A stretch of DNA of 64,000 nt from positions 3 to 64,002 of IMG/VR virus record IMGVR_UViG_3300027858_000005; one strand, 5' to 3'. Shown here piece by piece: positions 3,888 to 63,027 of the stretch. The notes beneath the pieces were generated by a model. That model ran no database searches. It saw nothing but the letters and a program-made list of their open reading frames with translations, and was not told where the DNA came from. Each line of letters opens with the position of its first letter. The first letter of the stretch is position 1. The stretch is from a virus. Both the position numbers and the translations under genes were made by a program.

Positions 3888-3915
3888 ATAATAACACAAT
3901 ACAAAATAATTGCAA
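3888..3915 (-). promoter_or_regulatory. Repeated early promoter P1
   Basis: TTGCAA-N16-TATTAT with TG extension. Confidence 0.7.
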
Positions 3916-3940
3916 GGATTATTACAGATATTTTTAAGCT

Positions 3941-4117
3941 TTATTCAACCGCCGTCGGGTATTTGTTGGGGTCCGGTTTTTCTTTGGTTTCAATCCATCC
4001 GATACCGACCCATTCCATGACAACGCCTTTGACTATGACCGCGTCATATTTCTTTTCGTTACCGGCAACCATTTTCATCGTTGACAGTTCTGATCGTTTT
4101 ACTGTTTTGTTTTTCAT
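3941..4117 (-). CDS. 58-aa hypothetical protein (not in track)
   Basis: MKNKTVKRSELSTMKMV...MEWVGIGWIETKEKPDPNKYPTAVE with AAAGGAG RBS. Confidence 0.65.
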   Translation of the reverse strand: MKNKTVKRSELSTMKMVAGNEKKYDAVIVKGVVMEWVGIGWIETKEKPDPNKYPTAVE

Positions 4118-4146
4118 TTCAATTTCTCCTTTAAAAGTTTAGGAAT

Positions 4147-4185
4147 GTCGACCCGGCGAAGAACGCACGCGGGGGCCGGGTCGAC
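4147..4185. repeat. Perfect 11-bp inverted repeat (stem-loop)
   Basis: GTCGACCCGGC ... GCCGGGTCGAC, 17-nt loop, intergenic. Confidence 0.7.
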
Positions 4186-4222
4186 TTATACGGTGATACC
4201 TGCACCGCCTTAGAATGCCCCG

Positions 4223-4381
4223 CTAGTTTTCAATTTCTTCAGTTGAAAGCAGAACGCCAAAATAATAATCGTTGTCCCATGCTAAATCGAAAGCTTCGCT
4301 TTCATCTTCGGCTTCGCCTTCCCATGTGCGGACAGACTCGCCGGTCTTGTCATCCAGATATGTCACTTTATACCACGGCAT
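4223..4381 (-). CDS. 52-aa acidic hypothetical protein (not in track)
   Basis: MPWYKVTYLDDKTGESVRTWEGEAEDESEAFDLAW..., TAATG-coupled. Confidence 0.6.
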   Translation of the reverse strand: MPWYKVTYLDDKTGESVRTWEGEAEDESEAFDLAWDNDYYFGVLLSTEEIEN

Positions 4382-5031
4382 TACTTCACCGCCCAGTCGT
4401 CACCGACTGAAACAATTCGGTCGCGGCCCGCGTCGACAACAAACTGCGTCGCAAGATATTCGGTGACCGTACCTTCGAAGGTTTCGTTGCCAACGTGCAC
4501 GACAACGGTTTCACCTTTCTTCGGTGCGCCGCGCGGGCGGGGTTGATCTTTCAACCACGGCTTCGCGCTTTCGATATCCAGTATCGGCAAGCTTTCGAAA
4601 ACTTCGCCCGCCGTGCGGTCGACCATTTTCAAAACCGCTTGCTCGACACGCTTCACCCGGTAAACTTTCTTGATCCGGTGGCGGCGACCTTGCGCCCAGT
4701 CAACAAACTGTTCACCGTTGAACGCCAGAAAGTGACGGTCGACCGTGACGAAAAATCTTCGGCCCCGGGCGTATCGTTTTAGATCGCGTTCAAGTGTCAC
4801 GACGGTTTTGCCGGGAAACGTTTCTTCGATAACCTCGAAGCCTAACGATTCAATTGCCGGTTTGCAATGATCTATGAAATATGAAGTGCGACGATTTTTT
4901 CGCCCCGCTTCTTTCATCGCGGCGTGTGCCTTTTCGTAAGACACCCCGCAGGAAATCGCAACCGACTTTACACCGCAGTCGTTGTGTTCGTTGAACTCCT
5001 TGCGCTTCTTTTCTAGTTCAGCAAAGTTCAT
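4381..5031 (-). CDS. Conserved phage hypothetical protein
   Basis: NDCGVKSVAISCGVSYEKAH motif, typical of an NDC-x-V-x-A phage family. Confidence 0.7.
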   Translation of the reverse strand: MNFAELEKKRKEFNEHNDCGVKSVAISCGVSYEKAHAAMKEAGRKNRRTSYFIDHCKPAIESLGFEVIEETFPGKTVVTLERDLKRYARGRRFFVTVDRHFLAFNGEQFVDWAQGRRHRIKKVYRVKRVEQAVLKMVDRTAGEVFESLPILDIESAKPWLKDQPRPRGAPKKGETVVVHVGNETFEGTVTEYLATQFVVDAGRDRIVSVGDDWAVK

Positions 5032-5186
5032 TTCATGTCACCCCAATATTCTTCATTGGCGCGCTTTCCTTCTTCTTCGTCGGCACGCGCTTTTTCTTCG
5101 TGACCGTCGCAATCGCAACCGTCGCCACGTCCGCACGCGCATTCGTCGTACTCGGTGGTGTAACCATTGTATTCAGGGTAGTTCAT
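5028..5186 (-). CDS. 52-aa Cys/acid-rich mini-protein (not in track)
   Basis: MNYPEYNGYTTEYDECACGRGDGCDCDGHEEKARADEEEGKRANEEYWGDMK after ACTTAGAAAGGAG RBS. Confidence 0.65.
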   Translation of the reverse strand: MNYPEYNGYTTEYDECACGRGDGCDCDGHEEKARADEEEGKRANEEYWGDMK

Positions 5187-5263
5187 TTTTCATTTCTCCT
5201 TTCTAAGTGTAACAAAATTCGGGAAAGTAACCCGGTCAACGTCCTTGTCAACCGGGGATCATT

Positions 5264-5467
5264 TTAAAGCAGTTCGAAGTTATTCCAAACAGTGCGCAAA
5301 AAATGATCGTGGTTGCCACTAGCCGCCTTCAGAACCAAAGCTTCAATTTCAGCTTCGGGAACGCCTGCTTCCCGCAGTGCTCGGACCATCCGTTTCGATA
5401 TTTCGAACGGGTCGCCCTTCAGGTCGGTGACTAAAACAGTGACGTCAGGGTAGTTAACGAATTTCAC
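5264..5467 (-). CDS. Hypothetical phage protein
   Basis: GTG start after AAAGGAGG; GDPFEISKRMVRALREAG...SGNHDHFL motif. Confidence 0.7.
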   Translation of the reverse strand: MKFVNYPDVTVLVTDLKGDPFEISKRMVRALREAGVPEAEIEALVLKAASGNHDHFLRTVWNNFELL

Positions 5468-5544
5468 TTCGCGTTCCTCCTTTCTCACTTCCCGGGACAC
5501 CATTGCCCCAAGATCATTCCAAATCCCTTTTTGACCATGTAAAG

Positions 5545-5572
5545 ATTATAACAGGTTGTTACAGGAAAGCAA
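5545..5572 (-). promoter_or_regulatory. Repeated early promoter P2
   Basis: TTGCTT-N16-TATAAT-CTTTACAT. Confidence 0.75.
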
Positions 5573-5615
5573 GAACTTTCGTAATTATTTTTTTCGGGCG
5601 GTTTTAAAAAAACGT

Positions 5616-5643
5616 TTGACTTTTGATAACCGTGTGTTATAAT
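5616..5643 (+). promoter_or_regulatory. Repeated early promoter P3 (divergent from P2)
   Basis: TTGACT-N16-TATAAT-CTTTACAT-CACTTAGAAAGGA. Confidence 0.85.
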
Positions 5644-5672
5644 CTTTACATCACTTAGAAAGGAAAAACGAA

Positions 5673-5858
5673 ATGAACTTACTTACCAAAATGATCGAGC
5701 AACTTGAAAACGAAGCGCAAGAAATTGTGAACACCCTGTCAAATGAAGAACTGTTGAACGGTGAATACGGCGCAGAATATGACAGCCTTGTTAACCAACT
5801 TGTTGAACTTCGAATGAACGACACCAACGCGAAACTTGAAGCACTGTTGAACCAGTAA
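5673..5858 (+). CDS. Small acidic early protein
   Basis: Strong RBS downstream of P3. Confidence 0.75.
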   Translation: MNLLTKMIEQLENEAQEIVNTLSNEELLNGEYGAEYDSLVNQLVELRMNDTNAKLEALLNQ

Positions 5859-5903
5859 AACAACCGCCCCTTCGGGGGCACCAACTTAGAAAGGAAAAAT
5901 GAA

Positions 5904-6125
5904 ATGAATACAGTATTAGACGGAAAACTTGTGAAGGTTGAATATGAAGTTGATCGCTTCGGCGATGTCGGACTCGATACAACTTTCGTTTTCGACATGT
6001 TCGGTAAAGAAATTGATATCGATACTTTGTCGAAGCACGCTACATGGAAGCTTGAAGAAATTGTCAGCGTCGACTTCGCTGGCGAAATGATCGAAGCTGC
6101 CCGTCACTTCGGCGGTGCAGCATGA
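5904..6125 (+). CDS. Small acidic early protein
   Basis: Hairpin plus ACTTAGAAAGGA RBS upstream. Confidence 0.75.
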   Translation: MNTVLDGKLVKVEYEVDRFGDVGLDTTFVFDMFGKEIDIDTLSKHATWKLEEIVSVDFAGEMIEAARHFGGAA

Positions 6126-6310
6126 ACGACGCGGAAAAGTTAAAGAAACTTCAACGCGATGTTCGCGTCGCGATTCGCCCGTTCGTCAACGCGAAGAAGT
6201 ACAGCCCCAGCAACAGCATTGACATTCAAACAAAACGTGTAATGAACGTCAAAGCGATTGACATTATCGTGCTGAAAAATTTATTACAAAGACTTGACAA
6301 CATCGGATAA
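6122..6310 (+). CDS. Small basic early protein
   Basis: ATGA-coupled; 3' end overlaps promoter P4. Confidence 0.65.
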   Translation: MNDAEKLKKLQRDVRVAIRPFVNAKKYSPSNSIDIQTKRVMNVKAIDIIVLKNLLQRLDNIG

Positions 6311-6321
6311 GGTGCTATAAT
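6294..6321 (+). promoter_or_regulatory. Repeated early promoter P4
   Basis: TTGACA-N16-TATAAT-TATAACAC. Confidence 0.85.
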
Positions 6322-6351
6322 TATAACACTTAGAAACAGAAAGGAAACGAA

Positions 6352-6543
6352 ATGAAAAACAGAACTTACCCCAACTTCAAGCCCGGGTCTTACGACCGCA
6401 ACGGCAAAGCACGCAACGAAGTTTATACTGGTTGTTGTGACGCGGCCCGCGACGGTTTCACGGGTAGCAAGTTTGATGACCCAGTCGAAGTTTCAAGCAA
6501 GAGCGTTTTCGAAGCCTTGCGCGAAATGGGAATCAAAATTTAA
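6352..6543 (+). CDS. Small early protein
   Basis: AGAAAGGA RBS after P4. Confidence 0.7.
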   Translation: MKNRTYPNFKPGSYDRNGKARNEVYTGCCDAARDGFTGSKFDDPVEVSSKSVFEALREMGIKI

Positions 6544-6589
6544 TCCACCGCCCCGGGCAACCGGGGCACCAACTTAGAAAGGAAAAATT

Positions 6590-6769
6590 ATGAAAAAGCG
6601 AGTATGGGAAATAACATTAGACAACGGCGACAAGTTCGAATTCTTTGCTGACAATAAAGGCGAAGCAATGGATCATGTTGTACAGTTGGAATCTGACCCA
6701 AATTTCAAAGAACTGACAAACTACGACCACCCGATGTTCACGCGCTGGGCGCTGGATGGTGACTTATGA
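6590..6769 (+). CDS. 59-aa early protein (not in track)
   Basis: MKKRVWEITLDNGDKFEFFADNKGEAMDHV... after hairpin and RBS. Confidence 0.7.
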   Translation: MKKRVWEITLDNGDKFEFFADNKGEAMDHVVQLESDPNFKELTNYDHPMFTRWALDGDL

Positions 6770-6942
6770 TCACGTACAAACAAATCAACGGCAAGAAATT
6801 TCATTTGCAAGTCAAGCTTGACGGTCGGGTCGTTGGTTCAATTCGACCCGTGCTGGACGGCTTTAAATATTTTCCGAAAGGTTCCTGCAACGGCGGTGAA
6901 CGGTTCGCGACAATTGACGAAGTCAAAGCCAGTTTGCTATAA
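6766..6942 (+). CDS. 58-aa early protein (not in track)
   Basis: MITYKQINGKKFHLQVKLDGRVVGSIRPVLDGFKYFPKG..., ATGA-coupled. Confidence 0.65.
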   Translation: MITYKQINGKKFHLQVKLDGRVVGSIRPVLDGFKYFPKGSCNGGERFATIDEVKASLL

Positions 6943-7642
6943 CCCACGGTTCCCGGCACTGATCAGGTTTCGGGTCACCATGAAAAACCACGACCCGCGA
7001 AAGCGGGTTTTGTTTTTTGCCCCGGCAATCGTACTTGTAAGAATCGATAAGATCGCGCGGCCAGTTTGCGACGTTGTCACGAAGCACGCGCCAAATCCAA
7101 CATTGATCGCCGTGCAACGCGTTCATGATTTTATCCGAATCGTTTGCGTACTGGGTAAATATCGGGTTCAATCTTTCATCGTTCGCTGACCACAACATGA
7201 CCGAAGAATTGTGCGCGCAGTGTCCCCGGTTCGGGCCGAAGTTGTAAATCATGATTAACGGTTCGGGTGCCCATTGGTGCGCAAGATAATCAAGGTCACC
7301 AGTGATCACGACGTCAAGATCGAAATACAAAACCCGGTCGCCGTCTTCAAACAAGCCCGGGTAAAACAACCAGACTTTTTGCCACCAGCCTTCGCGCTTT
7401 TTGTCGAGCGTCGGCAGCGGGACAGTTTCGACGCCGTCAATTTCCCGGTCAGACAAACAAACGAATCTTATCGGAACTGACAAGTTTCTTTCAACTGCTG
7501 ACTTCAGTTTGTGAACGTATTCGACTTTGTATTTCGTTCCATAGAAAACGCAAGTGACAACCAGCGGGCGGTTCCCGGGCGGGTGATCGCGATAGATCGA
7601 CCAGCGCGTCGGCGTAATCGGCGGGGTTTTTAAATCGATCAT
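6923..7642 (-). CDS. GT-A fold glycosyltransferase (GT8-like phage family)
   Basis: GTKY..EYV..L, GWWQKVWLF, LYFDLDVVI (DxD), NSSVMLW, GDQ, VVVFHGDPKP; probable ATG at 7642. Confidence 0.85.
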   Translation of the reverse strand: MIDLKTPPITPTRWSIYRDHPPGNRPLVVTCVFYGTKYKVEYVHKLKSAVERNLSVPIRFVCLSDREIDGVETVPLPTLDKKREGWWQKVWLFYPGLFEDGDRVLYFDLDVVITGDLDYLAHQWAPEPLIMIYNFGPNRGHCAHNSSVMLWSANDERLNPIFTQYANDSDKIMNALHGDQCWIWRVLRDNVANWPRDLIDSYKYDCRGKKQNPLSRVVVFHGDPKPDQCREPWVIANWL

Positions 7643-8364
7643 TGTGGCGGTGCCAAAATTACATCGCGGTGAACTTTCTGCACGACTTGATACTTGTGAA
7701 TTCTTTCGAGCCATTCGGTCGCTTCGCCTGCTTGGTGATTGACCTGTTTGCCCGGTCCCATTTGCGGCAACGGCTTTTCTTCGATCATGATGAAAGGCTG
7801 ATAACGTTCGATAGTATCGTACGCCCCGCGCAGTGCTTCCACTTCGCGCCCTTCGATGTCAAGGCAGATCAGATCGCACGCGACCATCTTCAAATCATCC
7901 AGAACGATTCTCGGCACGACTTCAGAGTAACCAGCCGAAAATTCTGGCGCGTCAATCGTAAAGAAGGCACCAGCGTTTCCCCGTTCTGATGGATGTAGTG
8001 CTGTCGTAACGTTACCGGGCTTTTCACCCAGTGCCGCGTTCAGCGGCATTATTTTTTCTGGCAAGTGCGACACGTTCGCCGCCAAACACCAGTAATTTAA
8101 TTTGTCTGGTTCATACGTGAACACTAAATCGAAATGCTGCGCCAACGCAACAGGCCAAACGCCCATAGCGCCGCCAGCCTGAACCGCGATTTGCATGTCG
8201 CGCCCCGCCTTGGTCATCAACAACAACGTCGCGTTCAGATCGTTGACCCAGTCGTTGACCGCTTTCAACTTCGTATCTTGCTTCGGCCATTTCCAGCGGC
8301 GACCATCGAATTCGATGTACTCGCAAAAATCGTCGTAGTCAGTTGGTGTGTTAGTAGTCATCAA
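7639..8364 (-). CDS. FkbM-family SAM methyltransferase
   Basis: AVQAGGAMGVWP...YEPD, ALGEK, LICLDIEGREVEALRGA. Confidence 0.85.
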   Translation of the reverse strand: MMTTNTPTDYDDFCEYIEFDGRRWKWPKQDTKLKAVNDWVNDLNATLLLMTKAGRDMQIAVQAGGAMGVWPVALAQHFDLVFTYEPDKLNYWCLAANVSHLPEKIMPLNAALGEKPGNVTTALHPSERGNAGAFFTIDAPEFSAGYSEVVPRIVLDDLKMVACDLICLDIEGREVEALRGAYDTIERYQPFIMIEEKPLPQMGPGKQVNHQAGEATEWLERIHKYQVVQKVHRDVILAPPQ

Positions 8365-8986
8365 TTTTCCCTTTCTTGAAGTGGTTCAGTGCTGATGTTT
8401 CGCACAAGTTTATCACAGTTATTCCAAGGTCGCTTTCATCAATCGTTTCGAACTGTTTGATCAGCCCGGTGAATTCACCGTTCGGGCCGGTTCGTGGGTT
8501 GTGATACAAACTGCGCGGGTACTCGCCGAAGTAATGCCGCTTTTCCCCGGGCGGGTATGCCATGTCGTACCCCAATAAATAGAATTCTCGAATTCCTGCA
8601 TGATACGCGATTCCAAGTATCTGATAGCCGCTTGCGTGTCCGAAGTGGATAAACGCGGGGTCTTTGGACAGACTGTCACCCCAACGACCTTCGATATAGT
8701 TAAGGTTTTTGATTTCACCTGACCGCCAGATATAAGTTGGTTTGTGCCACGTCCACTTTTCAAAAGGCGCGTCGCGAATGCGCGGGTCTTGTGCGTATTC
8801 GTCCCACCATTCCGGGTTGCACGCCATGAAGTAGTCAAGCGACGGCACGCGCTGATAAACGTTGTTGATACCGAACAAAGGAACGCCCAGCCGTTGCCAG
8901 TTAAGCGCCCATTCAATTTGATCATCTGACAAAGACGGGCCAGTCCCGATAATAATTCCTTTAGTCTGTGGCGTTCGCGATTGCAT
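8351..8986 (-). CDS. Maf/DUF115 (MptE-like) glycosyltransferase-like protein
   Basis: IIIGTGPSL, FGINN, ASGYQILGIAYHAGIREFYLLGYDM. Confidence 0.75.
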   Translation of the reverse strand: MQSRTPQTKGIIIGTGPSLSDDQIEWALNWQRLGVPLFGINNVYQRVPSLDYFMACNPEWWDEYAQDPRIRDAPFEKWTWHKPTYIWRSGEIKNLNYIEGRWGDSLSKDPAFIHFGHASGYQILGIAYHAGIREFYLLGYDMAYPPGEKRHYFGEYPRSLYHNPRTGPNGEFTGLIKQFETIDESDLGITVINLCETSALNHFKKGKIDDY

Positions 8987-9691: not shown

Positions 9692-9694
9692 TTT

Positions 9695-11692
9695 CTATTT
9701 GGCTTCGCCCCAGTTGTCCCCGTGATTGCTGTCGCACGTTAACGGCAGGTTTAGCAGGACGCAGTTTTCCATTATCCGTTTCGCTTCGTCGTGGGCTTGG
9801 TGTGCTTCCGTCGTTTTGGGCACCGACCAGTTTAGTTCGTCGTGTACGGTGAGAAGCGGAGCCCCTAATGTGTCGATTATACCAGCCGTTTCCCATATAT
9901 CCACCATTGCAATTTTCATAATGTCCGCCGCTGAACCTTGCAGTAAAGCGTTCAGGGCTTTATGTGTGTTAGCGACTTCGTATTCGTCGCCGTACTTTTC
10001 CCGGGCGACGGTTTCATTGAACGCGCCTTCTGCTTTCGCTATTTTACGATTGACTGATTGGTAACGATCCCAGCGCCGACGCCGCCCCTGATATGTTCGA
10101 ATCCATTTCCGGTTTTTCGCGCGCCTGTCGCATTCGTCATACAGCGATTTGATGAATGGTAACCTACTATGGTATTGCAAGAAAAGCGGTTTTACATCTT
10201 CCAGCGAACGTCCCAGATTTGCCGCCATCGTGGGTTCACCCATACCGTACACCAAGCCGAAGTTAATGTTCTTTGCGGGCTTGCGGTCAATCCCTGTCAG
10301 TTCTGAAACGAATTTGTGAAAGTCTGTCGTTGGATCGTCGCGAAACTGTCGGCAAATAACGTCGGCGGCGCTTCCCGGGTCGCGCTTCCCGTATTGCTCG
10401 AACGCATAATGCACCAGCATTCGAAATTCGATTTGTGACCAATCGTCCGAATACCAGTCTTCACCTTCGTCGGGTATGAACAGCGACCGGATACGCGGCC
10501 CGAGTTCTTCATCGCGTGCCGGGATGTTCTGAAGGTTAGGATTACTGGAACTGAAGCGCCCTGATACCGCCCCGTAGGCGTCGTTTTTAAGTTGGTGAAA
10601 CTGGGTGTGAATGCGCCCGTTGATCTCATTGCCCAGTATAGCGCCCTTGATGAACGTTCCTGAATGCTTGTCCAGCTTGCGCAGTTGGTGAACGTCGCGC
10701 AATATTTGTTCTGGGTGTTCTTCCAGAAAATCAGCCGTGAATGAAGGCTTTTTCGTGGGCGTCAGATTGAAGCTGACAGCGTGCTTGTGACACCATGCCG
10801 CAATCGATTCAGCGCCCCACACGTCGATTCCAGCGGCGGTAACCTTCTTTCTGATGCCGTCGGCCACGGTCATCAATTCGTCGTCAAGGGCGTGCGCTGC
10901 GGGCTTGTCAACGGCAACACCGCGTCGGCGCATGGCTAGCATCATCGGCAGCAACCGCGTTTCAATGTCCCAAACACGCCCTAGTTCTTGATCTGCGATG
11001 ATTTCTCGTTGCTTAGCTAAGATGTCCCGGGGCTGTTCAACGTCGCCCATCGCGTATTCTGCGACCACTTCCGGCGGTGCCCGGTATATGTTCTTCGCCT
11101 GACCCGCCCGGGTAGGCTTTCCACCATACGCAGCGGCTAGCCACGCGTAAAGCTGTTCCTCGCGCTTGCCTTCACCCAGATACTTTCGCGCACAACCGCC
11201 CAGTGAGAACGTGAAGGCGTTTTCGTCAATCAGGGGTTCAGCAATCAGGATATCGTAATACGGTCCCGGGACTTCAACCCCGGCTTCCCACAAGTAATCC
11301 AGATCGTACAACAAGTTCGCGCCGATCTTCGCAACGCCCGGGCGGCACAGTTCATGCTTTGCCCAGTTAAGAACATTCTTCCGGGGCAGGTTGTATCCGC
11401 TGGGGTCGTATTTGTCGGGGTGGTCGTGTTGCATAGGGAAATACCAAGAACGGTCTTCAGTAGCGACAGAAATTCCGACCATGAACCCATCGCGTCGAAC
11501 GCCCGGGCCTTTTTCTTTCAAGTCGGGGTCGTAGGTTTCGACATCGATGACCAGTTCTTTTGCGCTATCAAGACGTGGGAATTCTGTTGGCTTCCATATC
11601 ACGTTGTCCGGTATCTTCGGCATGACGCGCGGACCTTTGCGCTTCCCTGCTGGCGCGTCCCACAATAGCCCGGAATTTTTCGGGTAGCTCAT
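9695..11692 (-). CDS. polA: Family A DNA polymerase with 3'-5' exonuclease
   Basis: DVETYD exo I, GRFSSSNPNLQNIP, DWSQIEFR (motif A), KNINFGLVYG (motif B, Phe at the 762-equivalent position), TVHDEL (motif C). Confidence 0.97.
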   Translation of the reverse strand: MSYPKNSGLLWDAPAGKRKGPRVMPKIPDNVIWKPTEFPRLDSAKELVIDVETYDPDLKEKGPGVRRDGFMVGISVATEDRSWYFPMQHDHPDKYDPSGYNLPRKNVLNWAKHELCRPGVAKIGANLLYDLDYLWEAGVEVPGPYYDILIAEPLIDENAFTFSLGGCARKYLGEGKREEQLYAWLAAAYGGKPTRAGQAKNIYRAPPEVVAEYAMGDVEQPRDILAKQREIIADQELGRVWDIETRLLPMMLAMRRRGVAVDKPAAHALDDELMTVADGIRKKVTAAGIDVWGAESIAAWCHKHAVSFNLTPTKKPSFTADFLEEHPEQILRDVHQLRKLDKHSGTFIKGAILGNEINGRIHTQFHQLKNDAYGAVSGRFSSSNPNLQNIPARDEELGPRIRSLFIPDEGEDWYSDDWSQIEFRMLVHYAFEQYGKRDPGSAADVICRQFRDDPTTDFHKFVSELTGIDRKPAKNINFGLVYGMGEPTMAANLGRSLEDVKPLFLQYHSRLPFIKSLYDECDRRAKNRKWIRTYQGRRRRWDRYQSVNRKIAKAEGAFNETVAREKYGDEYEVANTHKALNALLQGSAADIMKIAMVDIWETAGIIDTLGAPLLTVHDELNWSVPKTTEAHQAHDEAKRIMENCVLLNLPLTCDSNHGDNWGEAK

Positions 11693-13949: not shown

Positions 13950-14029
13950 TTCGTCTGCTCCTTTATAACCAGAACATTACCACAGTTCCAGCACAAAACA
14001 AAATCGTGTGGTTAGTTTCCCGAGTACAA

Positions 14030-14106
14030 CGCGCAGCGGTTTCGAACCCGCTGGTTGTCGATGCCTGAACACCACAATTCAGAAACGTCTATCAGTCCGG
14101 TTCGCG
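14030..14106 (-). ncRNA. Degenerate tRNA-His(GUG)-like element
   Basis: Anticodon arm CTGAA-TTGTGGTG-TTCAG, T-like arm AGCGG-GTTCGAAA-CCGCT, weak D and acceptor stems, no CCA. Confidence 0.4.
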
Positions 14107-14140
14107 ACCCTCGCTGATAACAATAGTTCTCGTTTAAGAA

Positions 14141-14190
14141 GGTAGCGGCGGCGGGGACTCGAACCCCAGTGTCAACCGACTTTGACCGCC
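14141..14190 (-). ncRNA. Anticodon-less tRNA-like element
   Basis: GGCG-[GTCAA AGTCGG TTGAC]-[GGGG TTCGAGT CCCC]-CGCC. Confidence 0.45.
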
Positions 14191-14201
14191 TCATAAATTT
14201 T

Positions 14202-14288
14202 TGGTGGATGCCGAAGGATTCGAACCTTCTACGGTCTAGCCGCGTCCCGCTTTACAGGCGGGCGAACTTCCAGTCGTTCATCGCATCC
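14202..14288 (-). tRNA. trnY: tRNA-Tyr (GUA) with encoded CCA
   Basis: GGATGC/GCATCC acceptor (G7:G66 mismatch), GAAC/GTTC D stem, CCCGC-CTGTAAA-GCGGG anticodon arm, long variable arm, GAAGG-TTCGAAT-CCTTC T arm, ACCA end. Confidence 0.92.
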
Positions 14289-14325
14289 ACTGATCAAAAA
14301 ACTTCGTAAAGCGTTTTGATCAGTG
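14288..14325. repeat. 12-bp inverted repeat abutting the tRNA 5' end
   Basis: CACTGATCAAAA ... TTTTGATCAGTG. Confidence 0.7.
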
Positions 14326-14329
14326 CCCC

Positions 14330-14615
14330 GAAGGGTGACCGGATTCCAAAACCGTGAAACAGGAACAGTAGTGGTTGTCCTAACATTTTTTCGTCTTGCT
14401 TGACGTCGGCTATTGCATCCTGTACTGATTTTTCGCCCTTCTGTCTAGGTGTCATCCTGAACCTAGCTATTGATTTCTGGGTAGGTAGCCGACAGCCCTT
14501 CAATAGTAGGGGTGTCGGTTATAAGCGGCTTACCTGATTCGTGCGACCTTTCGGCCCGTTTCCGCTTAACCTTTTAAATTCACCATTTGCGTTTCTTGTA
14601 TCTCCTTTCTCTAAG
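14330..14615 (-). ncRNA. Candidate structured RNA or tRNA leader downstream of P5
   Basis: Nested helices AAGCGG/CCGCTT, GGCC-GAAA-GGTC, CCGACA/TGTCGG, CTAGGT/ACCTAG; no credible ORF. Confidence 0.45.
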
Positions 14616-14625: not shown

Positions 14626-14653
14626 ATTATAACAGCACCCTACAAAAAGTCAA
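14626..14653 (-). promoter_or_regulatory. Repeated early promoter P5
   Basis: TTGACT-N16-TATAAT-CTTTACAT. Confidence 0.85.
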
Positions 14654-14693: not shown

Positions 14694-14720
14694 AAAAAAA
14701 GTGCCCCGGTTTCCCGGGGC
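14694..14720 (-). terminator. Rho-independent terminator
   Basis: GCCCCGG/CCGGGGC stem followed by a U7 tract on the minus strand. Confidence 0.75.
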
Positions 14721-24319: not shown

Positions 24320-24590
24320 GATAAATTGCGACGCCCTAATAAGTAAACGGATTTTCAAACTTTCAGACAGGGTGTTAAGATTATAACACGTTTCGCACGC
24401 GCGCGCCATTAGAGAATTACACTTTTCAAATACCTGATAACTTGAAAAACGGCTAACTGACAACAAAGCTGTAAAACTATACCCTGTTATAAAACAGCAA
24501 ATAATCTTCACACACGTTTGAAATCTATGTATATTGTTTAACCTTATAGGAGATTACAATTTTCGGGGTCTTAATGGGTGTTCAAAAGCG
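24320..24590. promoter_or_regulatory. AT-rich control region A, paralogous to 61265-61665; contains an extended -10 (24380-24385, minus strand)
   Basis: Shares 23-, ~45-, 21- and (inverted) 16-nt blocks with region B. Confidence 0.75.
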
Positions 24591-27419: not shown

Positions 27420-27466
27420 TTCAATTTCTCCTTTCTAAGTTTTGCCCCGTTGCCGGGGCGGTTAAG

Positions 27467-27715
27467 TTATGAATAACAATCCAGACCTAAAGCTTCGATC
27501 ATTCCTTTCGCGAGGTAATCAAGGTAATGGAAAACATCGCCGTTTTTGAAATCGATGATTACCAGTGTCTTACGAATTTGTGCATGGTAATCTTTAGCTT
27601 CGTGAATGTAGTCAACCAGCATTTCGTAAGTTAATCCGAAGTGACCTTCGATTTTAATTTCTTGGTCAAGGTCGACGCCTTTTTCGTTGATCAGTGTTTT
27701 CAGGTACTTTTTCAT
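27467..27715 (-). CDS. Hypothetical early protein
   Basis: Under P9; TLVIIDFKNGDVFHYL motif. Confidence 0.75.
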   Translation of the reverse strand: MKKYLKTLINEKGVDLDQEIKIEGHFGLTYEMLVDYIHEAKDYHAQIRKTLVIIDFKNGDVFHYLDYLAKGMIEALGLDCYS

Positions 27716-27755
27716 TTCTGTTATTTCCTTTCTTCGTTTCGTTGATGTTGTAATA

Positions 27756-27783
27756 ATTATAACAGGGTCTTACCAGAAGTCAA
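27756..27783 (-). promoter_or_regulatory. Repeated early promoter P9
   Basis: TTGACT-N16-TATAAT. Confidence 0.85.
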
Positions 27784-27826
27784 GCGTTTTGGTGAAAATA
27801 AATATAAAAAGAATTATTAAAAAAAC

Positions 27827-27860: not shown

Positions 27861-28030
27861 ATGAATTAGGAAACAACCTGATTCGCAAACGGGTCAACCA
27901 GATGTCGCACCCGCAGCCCGCGAGGCAAAAGACTTCATCGTTATTGTAACAGCGGTTCCCTGCACCGAAGCGTAGCAGGGTCGGGACAACGAACCGACCT
28001 TGTGTGAAGACAGGCAGAATTTAGTTTTAA
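27861..28030 (+). ncRNA. Candidate structured small RNA
   Basis: Consensus promoter, no RBS, ATG-AAT-TAG only; hairpins GAATTAGG/CCTGATTC, CCCTGC/GCAGGG, GGTCGG/CCGACC. Confidence 0.55.
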
Positions 28031-51184: not shown

Positions 51185-52219
51185 TTAGAGTTGTGAACGG
51201 ATGACCACACCCGGCAAGTCTTTGTTGTCGTCCATCACTGAATCCCAGTTGGAACTGGTGCCCAGTGCGGCTTCGTCGGGGTTAACCCCGCCGTTTGCGA
51301 CATCCCACTTGATACCTTTCAGACCCATGTTGTAGGCAAATTCACCTTGCAAACGGGTTACCAGATTTTCTTGCCCGGTAATGACTTCGGTATGAAGCAT
51401 GTCTTCTTCGCTGTCTTCGGCGACACAACTATTTTCAACCAGACCCAAAGTCGCGTACTGGGTAGGTGAAACACTGTCGTCGATCAGTGCAGCCGAATCG
51501 GTAATCAGAACCGGACGGTTCAGGGTGACCGGCGTCGCTGTGGCAACGTTGAAGTTTGAAACACCGTCAATGTTATCGGTGATCTGTGAAGATACCAACT
51601 CGTAATACGGCTTCGAGTGCATGACCCAGATTTTGACCCGGCTGGCGGCGTCGCCAAACAGTGCCAGACCGTTGACAAGGTCGAGCGTGTCAAGACCGGC
51701 TTGCGGACTTGCACCGCCAGCGTCGCCGTCATACACAAGACCAGCTTGTGCAGTGATCCCGGCAACTAACGATGTAACGCAGGCGTCAAGCATTTCGACT
51801 TGCATTGCTTTCGCGATTTGCTCACCGAGCAAGAACGAAAGAACTTCAAGATCAGCCGAAGCGCCCAGCTTGCGGAATGAATCGAGAGTTTGATCGATAG
51901 GCCCGATACGACGATTCAGCTTCACGCTGATGAATTCTTCGATAGGGACGGCGCTTGATGCTACTGCCGGATTTGCGGGGGACACGTTAACTTCCCGGCG
52001 CTGGATGATATTTGCAACGTTCTTGAAGAACGATTCTTGTGCGAAGTCACCTTTCTGACGATTGGTAACCATGCGGATTGCATTCAGCGATTGCGCGTTA
52101 AACGCATTCGATACCTGAACGAGAGTTTCAGACATGCCCGAATGGACAAGTTCTGGGTAGATAATTCCTTCTGGTAATCTACCAACACCAGCGAACGATT
52201 CGCGAGTACCTTCTGTCAT
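51185..52219 (-). CDS. Major capsid protein
   Basis: 344 aa after the scaffold; FNAQSLNAI, VMHSKPY, GIKWD..NGG.NP. Confidence 0.92.
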   Translation of the reverse strand: MTEGTRESFAGVGRLPEGIIYPELVHSGMSETLVQVSNAFNAQSLNAIRMVTNRQKGDFAQESFFKNVANIIQRREVNVSPANPAVASSAVPIEEFISVKLNRRIGPIDQTLDSFRKLGASADLEVLSFLLGEQIAKAMQVEMLDACVTSLVAGITAQAGLVYDGDAGGASPQAGLDTLDLVNGLALFGDAASRVKIWVMHSKPYYELVSSQITDNIDGVSNFNVATATPVTLNRPVLITDSAALIDDSVSPTQYATLGLVENSCVAEDSEEDMLHTEVITGQENLVTRLQGEFAYNMGLKGIKWDVANGGVNPDEAALGTSSNWDSVMDDNKDLPGVVIRSQL

Positions 52220-52262
52220 GATTTTTACCTGCTAGTTAACGAGATTAATAAAACTCAAGCGG

Positions 52263-53069: not shown

Positions 53070-53163
53070 TTGTTGGCTTCCCGCTATTATTAACGCAGAA
53101 TTGATTATATTCCTGAATGAGAACAAAAGGCAAACTTTTATGTGAAAATAATTACAAAAACCC

Positions 53164-53191
53164 TTGCGTTCTGCTAATGTGGTGCTATAAT
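53164..53191 (+). promoter_or_regulatory. Repeated early promoter P12 (inside the head module, opposite strand)
   Basis: TTGCGT-N16-TATAAT-TATAACAC. Confidence 0.8.
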
Positions 53192-53228
53192 TATAACACT
53201 TAGAAAGCAAACAGAAAGGAAAAACGAA

Positions 53229-53492: not shown

Positions 53493-53536
53493 TTAAACGC
53501 CCGGGGCAACCCGGGCAAACAGAAAGGAAAAATGAA

Positions 53537-53842: not shown

Positions 53843-53879
53843 ACACTAACTACGCCCCTTCGGGGCAGGAGAAAGGAAA

Positions 53880-54619: not shown

Positions 54620-54645
54620 TCCGCTGTGCCAGTAATTCGGATAAT

Positions 54646-56044: not shown

Positions 56045-56093
56045 TAATATTTCCTGCGACGTTGCCTTTTTTGTTTGCGTTTCTTTTTCGACA

Positions 56094-57552: not shown

Positions 57553-59222
57553 TGTGAAACCGTTCCTGTCGGGTCGTCTTCGCCTGCGCCGCCCCTGTCG
57601 GTTGCTGCAACGTTCGCCTTCAAGCCGTGTTCATGACCCGGGCCTTCGGATGTTTCGGGGCTGTTCGGTTCCCATTTGTGCCGGTGCCCGTCAACGCTGT
57701 TCGTCCAGCCGTTCGCCTGCAAAATATGCGTGTGCCCGTCGGCGGGCGCTGTTTCGTCGCCAACGTGATTCGCGGCGTCGGCTTCTTCTCCTGTGATGCC
57801 CGGTTGATTGTCTTGGTATTCAAGATCAAGTAAGTCAATTTCGACTTCTGGGTCAAAATCATCAGATAGCAGATTGCGCCGTTTAAGTTCATCCCAGTAT
57901 GAAAGCTGACTGATATCGCCCCGCCCGCGCATCGCGTCCAGTGCCTTAATGTCGTCGCCGTCGCGCATTGTGATTGAGAAATCTTTGTAAAGCGTGACAG
58001 AACCGCCCGCATCTTCGCCAAGGTTCAGGATCACACCGAACAAATCGAACATCATTTCAAGCTGGTTTTCCAGATGCCTTGCAAACATGGCGAGCGGTGA
58101 ATCGGATTCTGATTGATCCAGCGTGCGCGCCGTTGCGGTCGTGTCCCCGGCTTGGCGCTTGACCACCATGTTCAAACCGAGTTTCGCGATTCGTTGTTCG
58201 AGCGTTTCCAAATCTTTCGCCCCGGCTTCGATGCCGTGCCCGGAATGCTCGACGAATTCCAGCGTCGACCCTTGCGGACCCCGGGTCATTGAATTCGGGC
58301 CTACTTCAATACGGAAATCAACACGTTCATCATTACCCAGACCAGCGCCGAACAGTATGGGCACGCGGGCAACGTGCAGGATGTGCCGTTGATCGCTGTC
58401 GCTTTGCCAGTGCGCAATATTCAGGTAGCCAACGTCGAGCATGGTTGGCGTGCCCAGCATGAAGCCGACATGCTTGCCATATACCGGAATCAGGGGGATG
58501 ACTTCAAGGTCGGTCGGCATATCAGATTCGAGTAGCCATTCTTCTTCTTTGGTGTCTTTGTCAACGACCAAAACGTAAACCCGGTGCCGCCCGATTTCCC
58601 AGACGTGAATTCGCTTGACGTTTACTTGTGCAAATTCGTCGCCCGGTACATCTTCTTCGTTTTCCATCAGTATTCGGGCTTGTGTCAAGATGACTTGCCC
58701 GTCGACAACCTCGGTTTTGAAGCCCAGAACTTGCGGCGCTTTTACATGGATTGCATACGGTCGCAATTCCCCGGTCAGCACATCGGCCCGGGTAACTTCC
58801 CGCCCTTCTCGATCTTCGATGACTTCTTTGTTCGGGCTGTCAACTAGCATATAGGTAACGCCGTGATTCATCGCCCAGAATCCAATTCGCTTTGTCCATT
58901 CGTTGATGTCAGTGCCAGCGGCGTCAATGTCGTCTTGATATTGTGCGATAGTCGGCGGGACATCTTCACCCAGAACGACAGGCTGTTTCATGATCTTACC
59001 GATCAGCTTGTTCAGGGTGTCTTCGTACAGCGGCGTCAATACAGAACGCGACAACCGCGATTTGTAAGCGGGTTCAGATTCGGCGGGTTCTTGTGGAAGG
59101 TACGTGGTCCCAGCGGCGCGCATCGCGCGGGTTCCGCCGGTCAGGGTGTTGACTAAATCCCATACAGGCTTCTGCGCTTCCCATTGGGCGGACGGTTGTG
59201 CAACCGAATTCTTTTCTGTCAT
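57549..59222 (-). CDS. Portal protein (DUF4055-like) with His-rich C-terminal extension
   Basis: GGTRAMRAAGTTYLP, YKSRLSRS, NIAHWQSDSD, LHVARVP; follows terL. Confidence 0.93.
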   Translation of the reverse strand: MTEKNSVAQPSAQWEAQKPVWDLVNTLTGGTRAMRAAGTTYLPQEPAESEPAYKSRLSRSVLTPLYEDTLNKLIGKIMKQPVVLGEDVPPTIAQYQDDIDAAGTDINEWTKRIGFWAMNHGVTYMLVDSPNKEVIEDREGREVTRADVLTGELRPYAIHVKAPQVLGFKTEVVDGQVILTQARILMENEEDVPGDEFAQVNVKRIHVWEIGRHRVYVLVVDKDTKEEEWLLESDMPTDLEVIPLIPVYGKHVGFMLGTPTMLDVGYLNIAHWQSDSDQRHILHVARVPILFGAGLGNDERVDFRIEVGPNSMTRGPQGSTLEFVEHSGHGIEAGAKDLETLEQRIAKLGLNMVVKRQAGDTTATARTLDQSESDSPLAMFARHLENQLEMMFDLFGVILNLGEDAGGSVTLYKDFSITMRDGDDIKALDAMRGRGDISQLSYWDELKRRNLLSDDFDPEVEIDLLDLEYQDNQPGITGEEADAANHVGDETAPADGHTHILQANGWTNSVDGHRHKWEPNSPETSEGPGHEHGLKANVAATDRGGAGEDDPTGTVSQ

Positions 59223-60661
59223 ATCTCGACCTGCTGGACAACGGCACCCCGAGAAAACACGGGGTAAGCTTTAGCGATATAATAGCCGACCGAGTCAGTT
59301 AAATGCGTTAACTTCGGGTCTGCCTTCTTGTCTAATTCGCCGCTGCCTCCCGCGAGAAGGCGAACACCTTCAAAATCTTTCACGGTTTGCGGGGCAGTAT
59401 TCGGGTCAACCATCATCTGAATTTCGCCGTCGCCAGTCTTCAGCCGTGTGTTTACCGCGTTGATTCTAGCACGTTCCGTCGGATTACTGCTAGGGACTTG
59501 CAAATGCACCCTTTTATTCCCGAAATGTTTGTACAACGCTTTTTCGATTAAGTCCCAATCAGACCCTTCAGTCTGGGCACTGCCCCGGCTTCCCCCGGTA
59601 GCATCGCCGTATAAATAAACATGCCCTTTGTGATCGCCCCAATCTTCGATAACCTTCCTGCATACTGCCGGGGTGTTGCTGTTGCGCGGTATATGAACTT
59701 CGCCGATTATCGCGGTCCCGGTCGACGCTGGGCGCGTCACATTAACGAACATTTCCCGCCCTTTTACCATGACCGGGGCAGCGGTTTCAATCACCCGGGG
59801 GAATTTCAATTCTTGCACAATGACACAAACACCCGGGTCAACGTTGAAATCGAAGCACAATATCAGGTCTGATGCTGGGTTGTAATGCTCTCGAAGATTG
59901 GTGCAATGCAGATGTCGTTCGAATGGGTAATACGCCTGCCCTTCGAAATTAACAAAACTTGCTTCGTATTCCTGCCGGAACGTAAGCGGGTCGAGTGATC
60001 TACGGGCTGACTCGATTTCCGCTTCGGGCAGTATGTCAGAACTGAACCATGTAAACGCGTCCCAGTCCCCGCCGTTGTCAACATGCAGCGCACCCAGCGC
60101 GTCGTTATAGGTGTCGTAGTAGTGATTCCGCCCTTCTGGTACGCCGATCAACCAACACCAGCCCGTTCGATCTGACAAAGACGGGCGAACATTTTCGCCC
60201 CATGCGTTCGGCTTCATGTTGGCGTATTCGTCCAAAACGCCGCCGTCCCACGGGGAACCTTCTATTCGCTGGGGCTTGTCCATTCCGACAACTGACAGCA
60301 TCGCCCCGGTTTTGTACCAGATGGTTAATTCCGTTTCACTGGTGCGCCAGACGAATTGCCGTGGCGACATGGCTTTCAGGTCATCCCAGTATATGCGCTT
60401 TGCTTGGTCGCGGGTCGGTGCCGCTGCAAAGTAGTTCGGATTATCAAAACTGCTGCGCCCTGATAAACATTCTTCGACTAGTTTACGCTTTGCCCGTTCG
60501 GTCTTACCAGAACGCCGCCCTGCTGGCACAACCTTGAAGCGCGCCATACTGAACCATAATCGAGATTGTTCGGCGTGGTACTTTAAAGCGTTCCAGCGTT
60601 TAGTTAATAGTCCGCTTTTGTCCGGCAGCTTCGACGCCGTCGCCCGGTTCCTGTAACCCAT
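59219..60661 (-). CDS. terL: Terminase large subunit
   Basis: AGRRSGKT, APTRDQAK, LDEYA, IGVPEG, QEYEASF, DFNVDP, HLTDSVGY. Confidence 0.95.
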   Translation of the reverse strand: MGYRNRATASKLPDKSGLLTKRWNALKYHAEQSRLWFSMARFKVVPAGRRSGKTERAKRKLVEECLSGRSSFDNPNYFAAAPTRDQAKRIYWDDLKAMSPRQFVWRTSETELTIWYKTGAMLSVVGMDKPQRIEGSPWDGGVLDEYANMKPNAWGENVRPSLSDRTGWCWLIGVPEGRNHYYDTYNDALGALHVDNGGDWDAFTWFSSDILPEAEIESARRSLDPLTFRQEYEASFVNFEGQAYYPFERHLHCTNLREHYNPASDLILCFDFNVDPGVCVIVQELKFPRVIETAAPVMVKGREMFVNVTRPASTGTAIIGEVHIPRNSNTPAVCRKVIEDWGDHKGHVYLYGDATGGSRGSAQTEGSDWDLIEKALYKHFGNKRVHLQVPSSNPTERARINAVNTRLKTGDGEIQMMVDPNTAPQTVKDFEGVRLLAGGSGELDKKADPKLTHLTDSVGYYIAKAYPVFSRGAVVQQVEI

Positions 60662-61262
60662 TGACTGAATTCATTTCCTGTAATACCCGTTGAATCGATG
60701 CCGCTGTTTCTTCCGGCGGTGTGGTGTCGTTGTCACCCTTGCCGAGAATTCCCATCATGACGGCTAGGTCGTTGTTTGCTTTGTGCTGGTCGTGCAATTC
60801 AAGATCGACGTTCCGTTCGCCCCGGGCGTTATGCGTGATCTTTATTTTTTTGATGCACTGGCGTTGTTCCTTGGTCAGTTGGTCAAGCGGAACAAGTTGA
60901 TAATCGCCGATGAAATAATCACCGACGTCGGAGTCAGCCCAGAGTGACCAGCGAGCAATGACCGATTCTTCGTTCTCGCCAGATACACGCAACAGGCGAC
61001 GCAGTTCAATTTCGACAACCCGGCGAACAGCTTCAAGCTGGAAAAGGTACGGACCGGAAGTCGGCGACATGCCCGCCGCTTCGGCGGCTTTCTTGGCGTC
61101 ACCCAGCCGCGCCATGTGATAACAAAATTCACGCCTTCCCGTAGTCCAGTTAAAATCTGTATTTATTTCATCGGGTATCGACAGGTGCAGGTCGATTTCT
61201 TCTTCAGACATATAACGCTTCTCGCGGTTTGGTTTCTCACCAGTATTCGCAGTTTGTTCCAT
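60600..61262 (-). CDS. terS: Terminase small subunit
   Basis: Upstream of terL; DAKKAAEAAG HTH, IKKIK, LELHDQHKA. Confidence 0.8.
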   Translation of the reverse strand: MEQTANTGEKPNREKRYMSEEEIDLHLSIPDEINTDFNWTTGRREFCYHMARLGDAKKAAEAAGMSPTSGPYLFQLEAVRRVVEIELRRLLRVSGENEESVIARWSLWADSDVGDYFIGDYQLVPLDQLTKEQRQCIKKIKITHNARGERNVDLELHDQHKANNDLAVMMGILGKGDNDTTPPEETAASIQRVLQEMNSVNGLQEPGDGVEAAGQKRTIN

Positions 61263-61264
61263 TC

Positions 61265-61665
61265 GGGCGAAAATTGCAATTTCCTATAAGTAAACGGAAT
61301 TTCAAACTATCTAAGCAGGTATACCCAAAAAAAAAGTTTTCGCGTGCACGTGGCATGTATGTATTTTTACAATATTTTGAGAACAAAACGAGAAAATGAG
61401 AACAAAACGAGAAAATGATATAGGTTTAATCTATACTAAACACACTTCATATAGAGAACAAAACGAGAACCTGTCAGATTATGAACACCCATTAAGAGCA
61501 GAATTATAACAACAAAACTTCAAATTCCTTTTTGATTTTCTGCGTTCACCGTACTGTAAACAATATACCCTGTTATAAAATCACGAATAATATTCACACT
61601 CTGAGGTTTACATAAATAACGTTTACCCTATAGGAGATTACAATTTTCGAGAACAAAACGAGAAC
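61265..61665. repeat. AT-rich control region B with iteron-like repeats and a ~29-bp imperfect inverted repeat
   Basis: GAGAACAAAACGAGAA at 61379, 61398, 61454, 61649; IR arms 61268-61295 and 61621-61649. Confidence 0.8.
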
Positions 61666-61676
61666 TTATCGCCCAC

Positions 61677-61699
61677 AAAAAAGCCCCGATTTCCGGGGC
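61677..61699 (-). terminator. Rho-independent terminator
   Basis: GCCCCG/CGGGGC plus U6. Confidence 0.8.
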
Positions 61700-61728
61700 A
61701 ATTCTGTTCTATTTCAACCTGCGATCTG

Positions 61729-61968
61729 TTAAACAGTTCGTGAAGCGCGCATCATGGGAGCCATGCTGTATCGACCCAACGGCAACATAGTTTCTTCGCC
61801 GTCGTGAACTGTGACCTTGCTGCGAACATCGCCGTGACCAACAACGTACATGGTAACAAACTTGTCAGTACGCTTGACGACAGTTCCCAACCAAACACAA
61901 TCATAGTCACAAACAGAACGCATTTCGTAAGTGGGTCCAACTTCAAATTTTACAGTTTCGTTACTCAT
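61729..61968 (-). CDS. Small early protein
   Basis: RSVCDYDC, LPLGRYSMAP motif; under P13. Confidence 0.75.
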   Translation of the reverse strand: MSNETVKFEVGPTYEMRSVCDYDCVWLGTVVKRTDKFVTMYVVGHGDVRSKVTVHDGEETMLPLGRYSMAPMMRASRTV

Positions 61969-62003
61969 TTAATTTCCTTTCTTCGTTTCGTTTAAGTGTA
62001 ATA

Positions 62004-62031
62004 ATTATAACACTCTTACCAGAATTGTCAA
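62004..62031 (-). promoter_or_regulatory. Repeated early promoter P13
   Basis: TTGACA-N16-TATAAT. Confidence 0.88.
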
Positions 62032-62049
62032 GCTTTTATAACAATTATT

Positions 62050-62337
62050 TTAACCTAATTTAATGACGTCCCCGGGCTTGTAAACCGTCTTGTACTTCTG
62101 GTCTTCTTTGTACAAGTCCAGCATTTCGACGAACAGGTCGGCCCAGCCTTCAACACTGAATGATGTGATGTGCGCAGTGTAAACCGTCGTGCCGTAGAAG
62201 CCAGCAAGCATCATTTGCGTGCTGTAGTCATCCGAAACAAAGTGGTAACAGCCGACATTTGAGTCGCCTTCAAGCCCGATGTCGAGCCCTGTACGACGTT
62301 TGATTTCTTTGCTGATGTTGGTGCGTGTTACTCTCAT
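62050..62337 (-). CDS. Small early protein
   Basis: AGAAAGGA RBS. Confidence 0.72.
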   Translation of the reverse strand: MRVTRTNISKEIKRRTGLDIGLEGDSNVGCYHFVSDDYSTQMMLAGFYGTTVYTAHITSFSVEGWADLFVEMLDLYKEDQKYKTVYKPGDVIKLG

Positions 62338-62357
62338 TTCGTTTATTCCTTTCTGGT

Positions 62358-62567
62358 TTAGATGTATTCGCGGCCTTTGATCTTGCGAACGATGCGCGTC
62401 ATTACCGACGGCTTATTCAAGTCACAAAACAGTTGAAAACATTTGCGGCCATCTTCAAAAGAATCAAACTTGATAGTGTGGTCTTTTGTGATAACGACAT
62501 ACTGTCCGCTATCCAGATCGTGTCCTAATTTGCCGCCTTCGTAAGTTGTTAAGTTCTTGATATTCAT
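62358..62567 (-). CDS. Small early protein
   Basis: Under P14. Confidence 0.72.
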   Translation of the reverse strand: MNIKNLTTYEGGKLGHDLDSGQYVVITKDHTIKFDSFEDGRKCFQLFCDLNKPSVMTRIVRKIKGREYI

Positions 62568-62593
62568 TTCGTTTTTCCTTTCTAAGTGTTATA

Positions 62594-62621
62594 ATTATAG
62601 CACTCTTATCAGAACTGTCAA
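62594..62621 (-). promoter_or_regulatory. Repeated early promoter P14
   Basis: TTGACA-N16-TATAAT-TATAACAC. Confidence 0.88.
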
Positions 62622-62669
62622 GCTTTTTTGTAATATTTATTACAATTAATTTCGTTTTATTACACCCAT

Positions 62670-62691
62670 AAAAAAGCCCCGTTTCCGGGGC
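62670..62691 (-). terminator. Rho-independent terminator
   Basis: GCCCCG-GAAA-CGGGGC plus U6. Confidence 0.8.
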
Positions 62692-62698
62692 TGGTTAG

Positions 62699-62965
62699 TT
62701 ATTGCGGGGGCTTGCCATCAACCCAAAGGTCACGATTCTGTTCAGTGAGTTTCGAAGGGTCGATGCCTTTGACGTTGTCAAGTATCATCTTTCTGCGATA
62801 GCTTGTGATGCTGACCACACCGTCGTATTTAGTCAAGTAGCCGGTAGTACCGTAAAGCGGCTTTCCGTTTTCCTTGCGAACCCACTTCGGTTGATCGCCA
62901 CAGTTTTTGATTTCGACGTTCAGGGTGACTTCTTTGTTGTTGCGGGTTCCGGTAATTGTTGTCAT
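62699..62965 (-). CDS. Small early protein
   Basis: Single gene between P15 and a terminator. Confidence 0.75.
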   Translation of the reverse strand: MTTITGTRNNKEVTLNVEIKNCGDQPKWVRKENGKPLYGTTGYLTKYDGVVSITSYRRKMILDNVKGIDPSKLTEQNRDLWVDGKPPQ

Positions 62966-62999
62966 TTCGTTGTTCCTTTCTGCTTGTTTAAGTGTAATA

Positions 63000-63027
63000 A
63001 TTATAACACAATTACCAGAACTGTCAA
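63000..63027 (-). promoter_or_regulatory. Repeated early promoter P15
   Basis: TTGACA-N16-TATAAT. Confidence 0.88.

Follow-up and report, generated by a model that had tools for sequence, protein, structure and literature searches.

Fifteen early promoters of an uncultured marine phage share a start-site tract that may double as the site of a phage-encoded regulator

Little is established, a few models aside, about how lytic phages that bring neither a polymerase nor a sigma factor of their own shut off their very strong early promoters. The question is raised by IMG/VR virus record IMGVR_UViG_3300027858_000005, of which we analysed positions 3 to 64,002 (hereafter the window, the whole stretch of 64,000 nucleotides): it carries fifteen dispersed promoters, P1 to P15, with a TGY-N10-ACA dyad over the -10 box. 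The window is nearly the whole of a 64,011-bp record, classed as linear and 88% complete, and encodes DNA polymerase A, an AEP primase, two helicases, terminase, portal and major capsid protein. Since searches of the record, at this completeness, for a tyrosine integrase, a resolvase and sigma70 region 2 gave nothing, the phage is apparently lytic and reliant on host RNA polymerase; a near-identical strain (99.9%) of 69,625 bp, which contains about 5.2 kb at the junction that is missing from the window, comes from a marine metagenome. What would control so many promoters at once? Comparison with relatives suggests that one phage DNA-binding protein could switch off all fifteen, and the explanation we consider best, with a probability of about 0.5, is that they are early promoters for the host sigma70 polymerase whose start-site tract doubles as the site of a phage regulator, and which also serve as exchange points for genes.

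All fifteen near-consensus sigma70-type promoters lie where a preliminary description had placed them. Their -35 boxes read TTGACA (seven copies), TTGACT (three), TTGCAA (two), TTGCGT (two) or TTGCTT (one), and every copy continues with a 16-nt spacer, a TG extension (TGT in 11, TGC in 4), TATAAT (TATTAT in P1) and ACA 4 nt past the -10 box. The family is sharply delimited: on a position weight matrix the lowest member scores 34 bits and the next site in the window 17, the complete pattern is absent from all 200 local shuffles, and a stricter pattern matches 14 times where 0.00 matches are expected. The near-palindromic form reported for P4, P12 and P14 was recovered, as was a copy without a -35 box near 24380; a possible 17th site at 9881 (TGGATA-16-TGG TATAAT CGAC ACA), inside polA, was left out of the count. 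The spacer sequence is only loosely conserved (0-1.2 bits per position over the 15 copies), and TTCTGRTAAG, said to occur there often, proved exact in only three copies (P9, P13, P14), with looser variants in about five others. Its length, by contrast, is 16 bp in 36/36 copies when relatives are pooled, a clade trait. Scans of viral contigs with exact or spacer-specific patterns gave no further family members, and a literature search on the exact motif found nothing relevant.

By sequence, all fifteen copies have the features of sigma70 extended -10 promoters (TG at -15/-14, TATAAT, a purine at +1 seven nucleotides downstream, a pyrimidine at -1), and an A/T-rich tract precedes the consensus -35 and -10 boxes in each. 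Established knowledge of such elements makes it very probable that the copies are functional promoters, as first proposed. They would be strong early (and early-middle) promoters for a host sigma70-type RNA polymerase, laid out as an A/T-rich upstream tract, -35 box, 16-bp spacer, extended -10, TATAAT, a start at the last A of ACA and, in most cases, a long Shine-Dalgarno (SD) sequence immediately after. The claim that most are followed by such a sequence and a small open reading frame (ORF) holds for the GAAAGGA core, found behind 14/15; exact ACTTAGAAAGGA stands behind only 6/15 (11 occurrences in the window overall), and the cargo of P5, P6 and P10 is not a small ORF. A 16S tail complementary to this SD sequence is present in many phyla, and a search for the host with polA among species genomes gave no match. 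The phage collection holds no close cultured relative, terminase matches are distant (35-58%), and a search with the primase yielded no loci.

Does the dyad, then, mark an operator? By the published start-site rules (position 7 after the -10 box, purine at +1, pyrimidine at -1; PMC5730371), the last A of ACA would be the modal start with C at -1, while TG is the extended -10 element, so that basal promoter function accounts for either half of the dyad. The copy without a -35 box (24373-24388, minus strand), upstream of an SNF2 helicase gene, fits the same rules: it has a perfect TG-T-TATAAT plus ACA, and an extended -10 promoter can work without a -35 box (PMC8695583). It is retained in relatives, R among them, and in L272 another such copy stands before terS. 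Taken by itself, the dyad says little for an operator: TG is the extended -10, CA the -1/+1 start, and the core is a common one among other viruses. The proposal that a single repressor governs the whole set thus stays plausible, but the symmetry on which it was originally based is accounted for by the basal promoter.

What favors an operator instead is found outside the promoter core: in second copies upstream, in the dyad in another register, and in a mobile motif of a sister branch. With a symmetric matrix built from the -15 to +1 tract alone, and expectations taken from dinucleotide shuffles, a second copy was observed upstream of or over the -35 box at 5 of the 15 window promoters (0.13 expected) and at 7 of 14 in the relatives R/L272 (0.12 expected), as against 0 among 131 other viral promoters that share this core. 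Spacings of 30, 40, 41, 42, 53 and 56 bp lie near whole helical turns; one further copy is at 72. These sites include one over the P1 -35 box (3911-3926, 30 bp from the -10 dyad, identical in R), a dyad-like one upstream of P4 (6273-6288, 40 bp, kept in R), one upstream of P12 (53141-53156, 42 bp) that also abuts the -35 box of a divergent late-type promoter, and the best, TGTAAT-N4-ATTACA, at P14 (62629-62644, 42 bp upstream of its -10 dyad, kept in L272). A model-free recount finds ATTACA or TGTAAT upstream in 5/15 window promoters and 11/14 of those in R/L272, versus 22/343 controls. The dyad in another register, TGT-N10-ACA with internal changes, spans the spacer and -10 box of a TTGAC-16/17-TACACT promoter, both in R and in the 5.2 kb missing from the window. 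This promoter lies upstream of, and in the same orientation as, a gene for a helix-turn-helix (HTH) protein discussed below, and it argues for an operator because its TGT is not an extended -10 and its ACA not a start site. Separately, a dyad-like match (score 10.6) at 52214-52229 overlaps the start codon of the major capsid gene.

The sister branch (G003, L006, L336) has an orthologue of the HTH gene and early promoters without the TGY-N10-ACA dyad, 16-bp spacers being kept in 5/6 promoters of G003, 5/5 of L336 and 1/1 of L338. In place of the dyad, these genomes carry GTATTAWAYGA over the -35 box, the spacer or the -10 box, in either orientation, as well as at free-standing sites before terS and next to the HTH gene. 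L336 holds 4 exact and 9 one-mismatch occurrences, against 0.17 and 1.5 expected, and the window no exact one; by inspection, the motif resembles the half-site of the window, agreeing with the upstream copy of P14 at 9/12 positions. Such placement looks like operator behavior and would make GTATTAWAYGA a cleaner operator candidate than the dyad of the window. Taken together, these three observations lead us to lean towards the view that the -15 to +1 tract is also bound by a regulator that the phage encodes, and that between a third and a half of the promoters have a second, weaker site 30-56 bp upstream.

Several findings weigh against this view. The TGY-TATAAT-N4-ACA core recurs in at least 117 other viral loci, the scan of viral contigs for TTGACA..TGY-TATAAT-N4-ACA having matched at least 117 stretches; among the matches listed there are 135 distinct sites, 120 with a 17-bp and 11 with a 16-bp spacer, reading TGC in 70 and TGT in 65. 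At loci picked for one ACA promoter, 38/175 sister promoters lacking TG also have ACA. Orthologues bend the geometry, P1 in R reading GTG..ACA and P12 in L002/L003 having 11 nt between the halves. The second site is lacking in 10/15 window promoters and found in 0/5 of L002/L003, its position coincides with that of an UP element, and its counts are not independent because the copies are paralogues. The robust upstream signal is mainly one half-site (ATTACA) within the A/T tract, with 8- and 11-nt spacings also raised. The 10 exact copies of GTATTAWAYGA in G003 (L271, L005) are a circular count, as the motif was derived from G003 itself.

Could the family therefore consist of ordinary, constitutive strong promoters with no operator at all? 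The dyad would then simply result from the extended -10 and the start site, a single ancestral cassette having been copied and its descendants homogenised by recombination, and the upstream match would be an inherited UP element. This is possible, though we find it somewhat doubtful. Besides the frequency of the core in other viruses, it agrees with the base preferences of 137 unselected viral promoters, in which position 6 is a pyrimidine in 71%, position 7 is A in 50%, ACA occurs at this offset in about 8% independently of the base after TG, and 16-bp spacers make up 15%. Likewise, the four TGC copies of the window keep ACA with no mirrored change, distant copies share identical tracts of 25-28 bp, and three forward copies in L002 share TAAAACA, which occurs in neither the window nor R, as homogenisation would give. 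It leaves unexplained, however, the dyad in its second register, the 0/131 control and the position-independent motif of the sister branch, and bases with no known role for RNA polymerase are fixed while the spacer diverges. Were there no operator, what remains would be an ordinary early-promoter family, with the lesson that TGY-N10-ACA over a -10 box alone should not be read as one.

Two other ideas were rejected. As an RNA hairpin or terminator the dyad fails, the core folding only weakly (-2 to -10 kcal/mol). A supercoiling switch, with 16-bp early promoters acting on relaxed incoming DNA and an 18-bp late promoter on supercoiled DNA, conflicts with published spacer data, in which 16-nt spacers are a stated exception that behaves like long spacers (PMC9303308) and synthetic 16-bp spacers are as strong as 17-bp ones, the effect of spacer length being small (PMC8695583).

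If the tract is a regulator site, which protein would bind it? The best candidate is the HTH protein encoded at 63224-63565 (minus strand), an XRE-type protein of 113 aa whose structural model has nine helices in two tandem HTH-like domains (pLDDT 85) and which could bind as a monomer rather than as the dimer originally proposed. Its full-length relatives form a small family of 110-128 aa. All longer relatives that show a promoter family have the gene, whereas two more distant records, in which no such family occurs, gave no match to it. It stands at the end of a long early operon, from which the protein would accumulate and then shut off the whole promoter set. Groups of recognition-helix sequences match groups of promoter motifs, a correspondence that falls short of showing co-evolution because it involves three groups on one tree. 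A fold search returned single-domain XRE/Cro-like hits only, none of them reaching E<=0.001. We infer from these sequence comparisons, as a tentative assignment, that the protein binds and regulates the dyad. Equally tentative is the wider picture for this clade of apparently lytic marine phages: one tandem-HTH repressor may control the whole early program (accessory genes, replication operons, tRNA and non-coding RNA units) through an operator that in this branch consists of the extended -10 and start site of the promoter itself, and that in the sister branch has changed, in sequence as well as in position, along with the recognition helix, the 16-bp spacer staying constant. A named protein, a defined 16-bp site and a sister pair with a different site (the P0006 protein and GTATTATATGA) make specificity directly testable by swap.

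A regulator of the host might also bind the dyad and so tie early transcription to host physiology. NifA recognizes TGT-N10-ACA and NtcA and other CRP-family proteins TGTA-N8-TACA, and HexR-like sites are a further candidate; the geometry of the dyad matches these consensus sites, and its best upstream copy reads TGTAAT-N4-ATTACA. We nevertheless regard a host factor as very improbable: from one phage branch to another, the motif and the HTH recognition helix change together, which with a host factor would require a change of host.

The scheme of a strong early promoter under an inverted repeat has a counterpart in anti-CRISPR (acr-aca) operons, whose promoters are repressed by HTH Aca proteins such as Aca2 (PMC6765145). 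Shared features are the repeat over the promoter, a second weaker repeat, a small XRE-type HTH protein and small uncharacterized cargo genes, with binding predicted in the present case. Here, however, fifteen dispersed promoters take the place of one operon, and the HTH gene is not beside the cargo and encodes two tandem domains; structural likeness to Aca10/Aca2 is weak and confined to one domain. No anti-CRISPR gene was recognized beside the HTH gene, the seven cargo proteins scanned having no Pfam family and no search having been aimed at anti-CRISPR proteins. If the operator is real, the system would work like Aca repression on the scale of a genome-wide regulon, yet would not be an acr-aca locus. 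Generic viral sigma70/sigmaA promoters (TTGACA-17-TGn-TATAAT) share all core elements, with N4-ACA in about 8% of unselected sites, and differ from the window family in its uniform 16-bp spacer (15% of unselected sites) and its upstream second copy.

The promoters also raise a second question, namely whether they help to exchange the genes behind them. Repeated early promoters with stem-loop elements (PeSLs) are known from the T4-like phages RB49/phi1, PST/T4 and nt-1/KVP40 (PMC2839356, PMC4122927), where recombination between the elements yields mini-circles, and the label had been applied to the present copies. It fits their behavior: a consensus sigma70 early promoter with an A/T-rich upstream tract (15/15) leads into an SD sequence and the start codon of a variable small ORF (GAAAGGA in 14/15; P10 heads a non-coding RNA and P5 an RNA array), and the cargo differs among relatives. 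It does not fit their anatomy. The phage is not T4-like, the 16-bp spacer and candidate operator are its own, and a GC-rich hairpin (-15 kcal/mol or better) within 130 nt upstream occurs only at P5, P11 and P14, none lying in the core, so that the cassettes are not strict PeSLs; most GC hairpins of the window follow the cargo or precede the next SD sequence.

Cargo exchange itself is readily observed. A unit of promoter P9 (27749-27783, first T of the -10 box at 27761), an 82-aa ORF and a GC hairpin lies at 27.5 kb in the window (27443-27790, minus strand) and before terS in L002, 78% identical from A-tract to hairpin; R has an additional promoter-gene unit beside P9, between two promoter copies. 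Behind P3 (5616-5650, plus; -10 T at 5638), R lacks the first ORF, a 61-aa gene flanked by two SD repeats (5653, 5884), and at P4 (6294-6328, plus; 6316), P7 (17512-17546, minus; 17524) and P8 (26149-26183, minus; 26161) the first cargo is replaced directly after the ATG, where identity stops, as it does after P3. P11 (28037-28071, plus; 28059) is missing in R, which keeps its gene. In L272, L002 and L003 the slots before terS and at P12 keep their promoters and contain other genes; P12 (53164-53198, plus; 53186) leads an island of three genes, inserted against the head operon, with other cargo in L002 and L003. P14 (62587-62621, minus; 62599), with its terminator (62676-62691) and A/T tract the most PeSL-like unit, is kept as a terminator-promoter unit in L272 and L002 with other cargo. 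Could the repeats, then, be mainly dedicated recombination sites, with regulation secondary? The relocated, inserted and re-loaded units are what this would predict, and we consider it improbable all the same: compared with relatives, cassette-led small genes were lost or replaced no more often than other small genes (9/19 versus 10/24, p=0.76), the most recent indel, a 94-aa gene differing between near-identical strains, has neither cassette nor repeat at its ends, the longest exact match between copies has a median of 11 bp, and 12/15 copies have no strong hairpin. Selection alone would also produce a pattern in which promoter and SD sequence persist and the cargo changes. The earlier suggestion of recombination handles, and its prediction that breakpoints fall at the cassettes, are thus borne out in part, by one whole unit moved and several junctions at promoter, SD sequence or ATG, with no enrichment of turnover there. 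A dedicated recombination system is unlikely; the shared promoter-SD tracts are likely used occasionally, as convenient and non-obligatory exchange points for accessory genes. The 94-aa gene is at 2289-2573 of L275, the 99.9% identical strain, and the window keeps its last codons only (61700-61730). The 82-aa cargo of P9 (27467-27715, minus) has no Pfam family and 41 homologous metagenome loci of very different GC, often behind another promoter type.

The remaining promoters show that the set is not purely accessory. P5 (14619-14653, minus; -10 T at 14631), preceded by a terminator hairpin (14703-14720), and P6 (15543-15577, minus; 15555), which heads a 254-aa DUF932 gene, are located upstream of the polA operon. 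P5 itself heads tRNA-Tyr (14202-14288) and an array of tRNA-like RNAs; the fragments at 14000-14600 (minus) give weak mascRNA- and tmRNA-like scores, and R has a different RNA set and no P5. P10 (27827-27861, plus; 27849) heads a non-coding transcript of about 165 nt (27861-28025), whose 3' 80 nt are 96% identical in R, against about 80% for coding DNA, with a folding z of -2.4; Rfam gave nothing at gathering score in the window and no match for this RNA. P1 (3881-3915, minus; 3893), reading TTGCAA-16-TATTAT with TGT..ACA, heads a long leftward operon of small genes and has an orthologue in R, P2 (5538-5572, minus; 5550) stands back-to-back with P3, and P13 (61997-62031, minus; 62009) and P15 (62993-63027, minus; 63005) complete the set.

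The SD sequence recalls the SAS/ESAS of Cluster K mycobacteriophages, a 13-bp GGGATAGGAGCCC repeat with 17-bp inverted repeats (PMC3203893), in that a conserved, extended SD-like repeat stands right before the ATG of non-structural genes. In the window, ACTTAGAAAGGA sits behind a full promoter or a GC hairpin and has no paired 17-bp inverted repeats, leaving an analogy only. The hairpins form a family, GCCCCG-loop-CGGGGC, at 5865, 6549, 14721, 17209, 25832, 27460, 28330, 53498, 53853, 61699 and 62691. Behind those that are terminators comes a T tract; the others lead straight into the AGAAAGGA SD of the small gene that follows.

Finally, a different class of promoter, TTGCCT-18 nt-TATAAT with a TTTTGTTCTC box (53104-53133, minus), lies ahead of the gene preceding the major capsid gene, its 18-nt spacing kept in L001-L006. 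The TTTTGTTCTC box occurs once in this capsid-operon promoter and four times before terS (61379-61658, minus), with 6 in the window against 0.16 expected; it is kept in L001-L003, L272 and R and is a candidate late-activator or terminase site. A duplicated multi-block non-coding element (24330-24560 and 61290-61640, minus), conserved in relatives, heads the helicase and terS operons and carries the promoter without a -35 box in one copy in the window and in both copies in the JGI relative.

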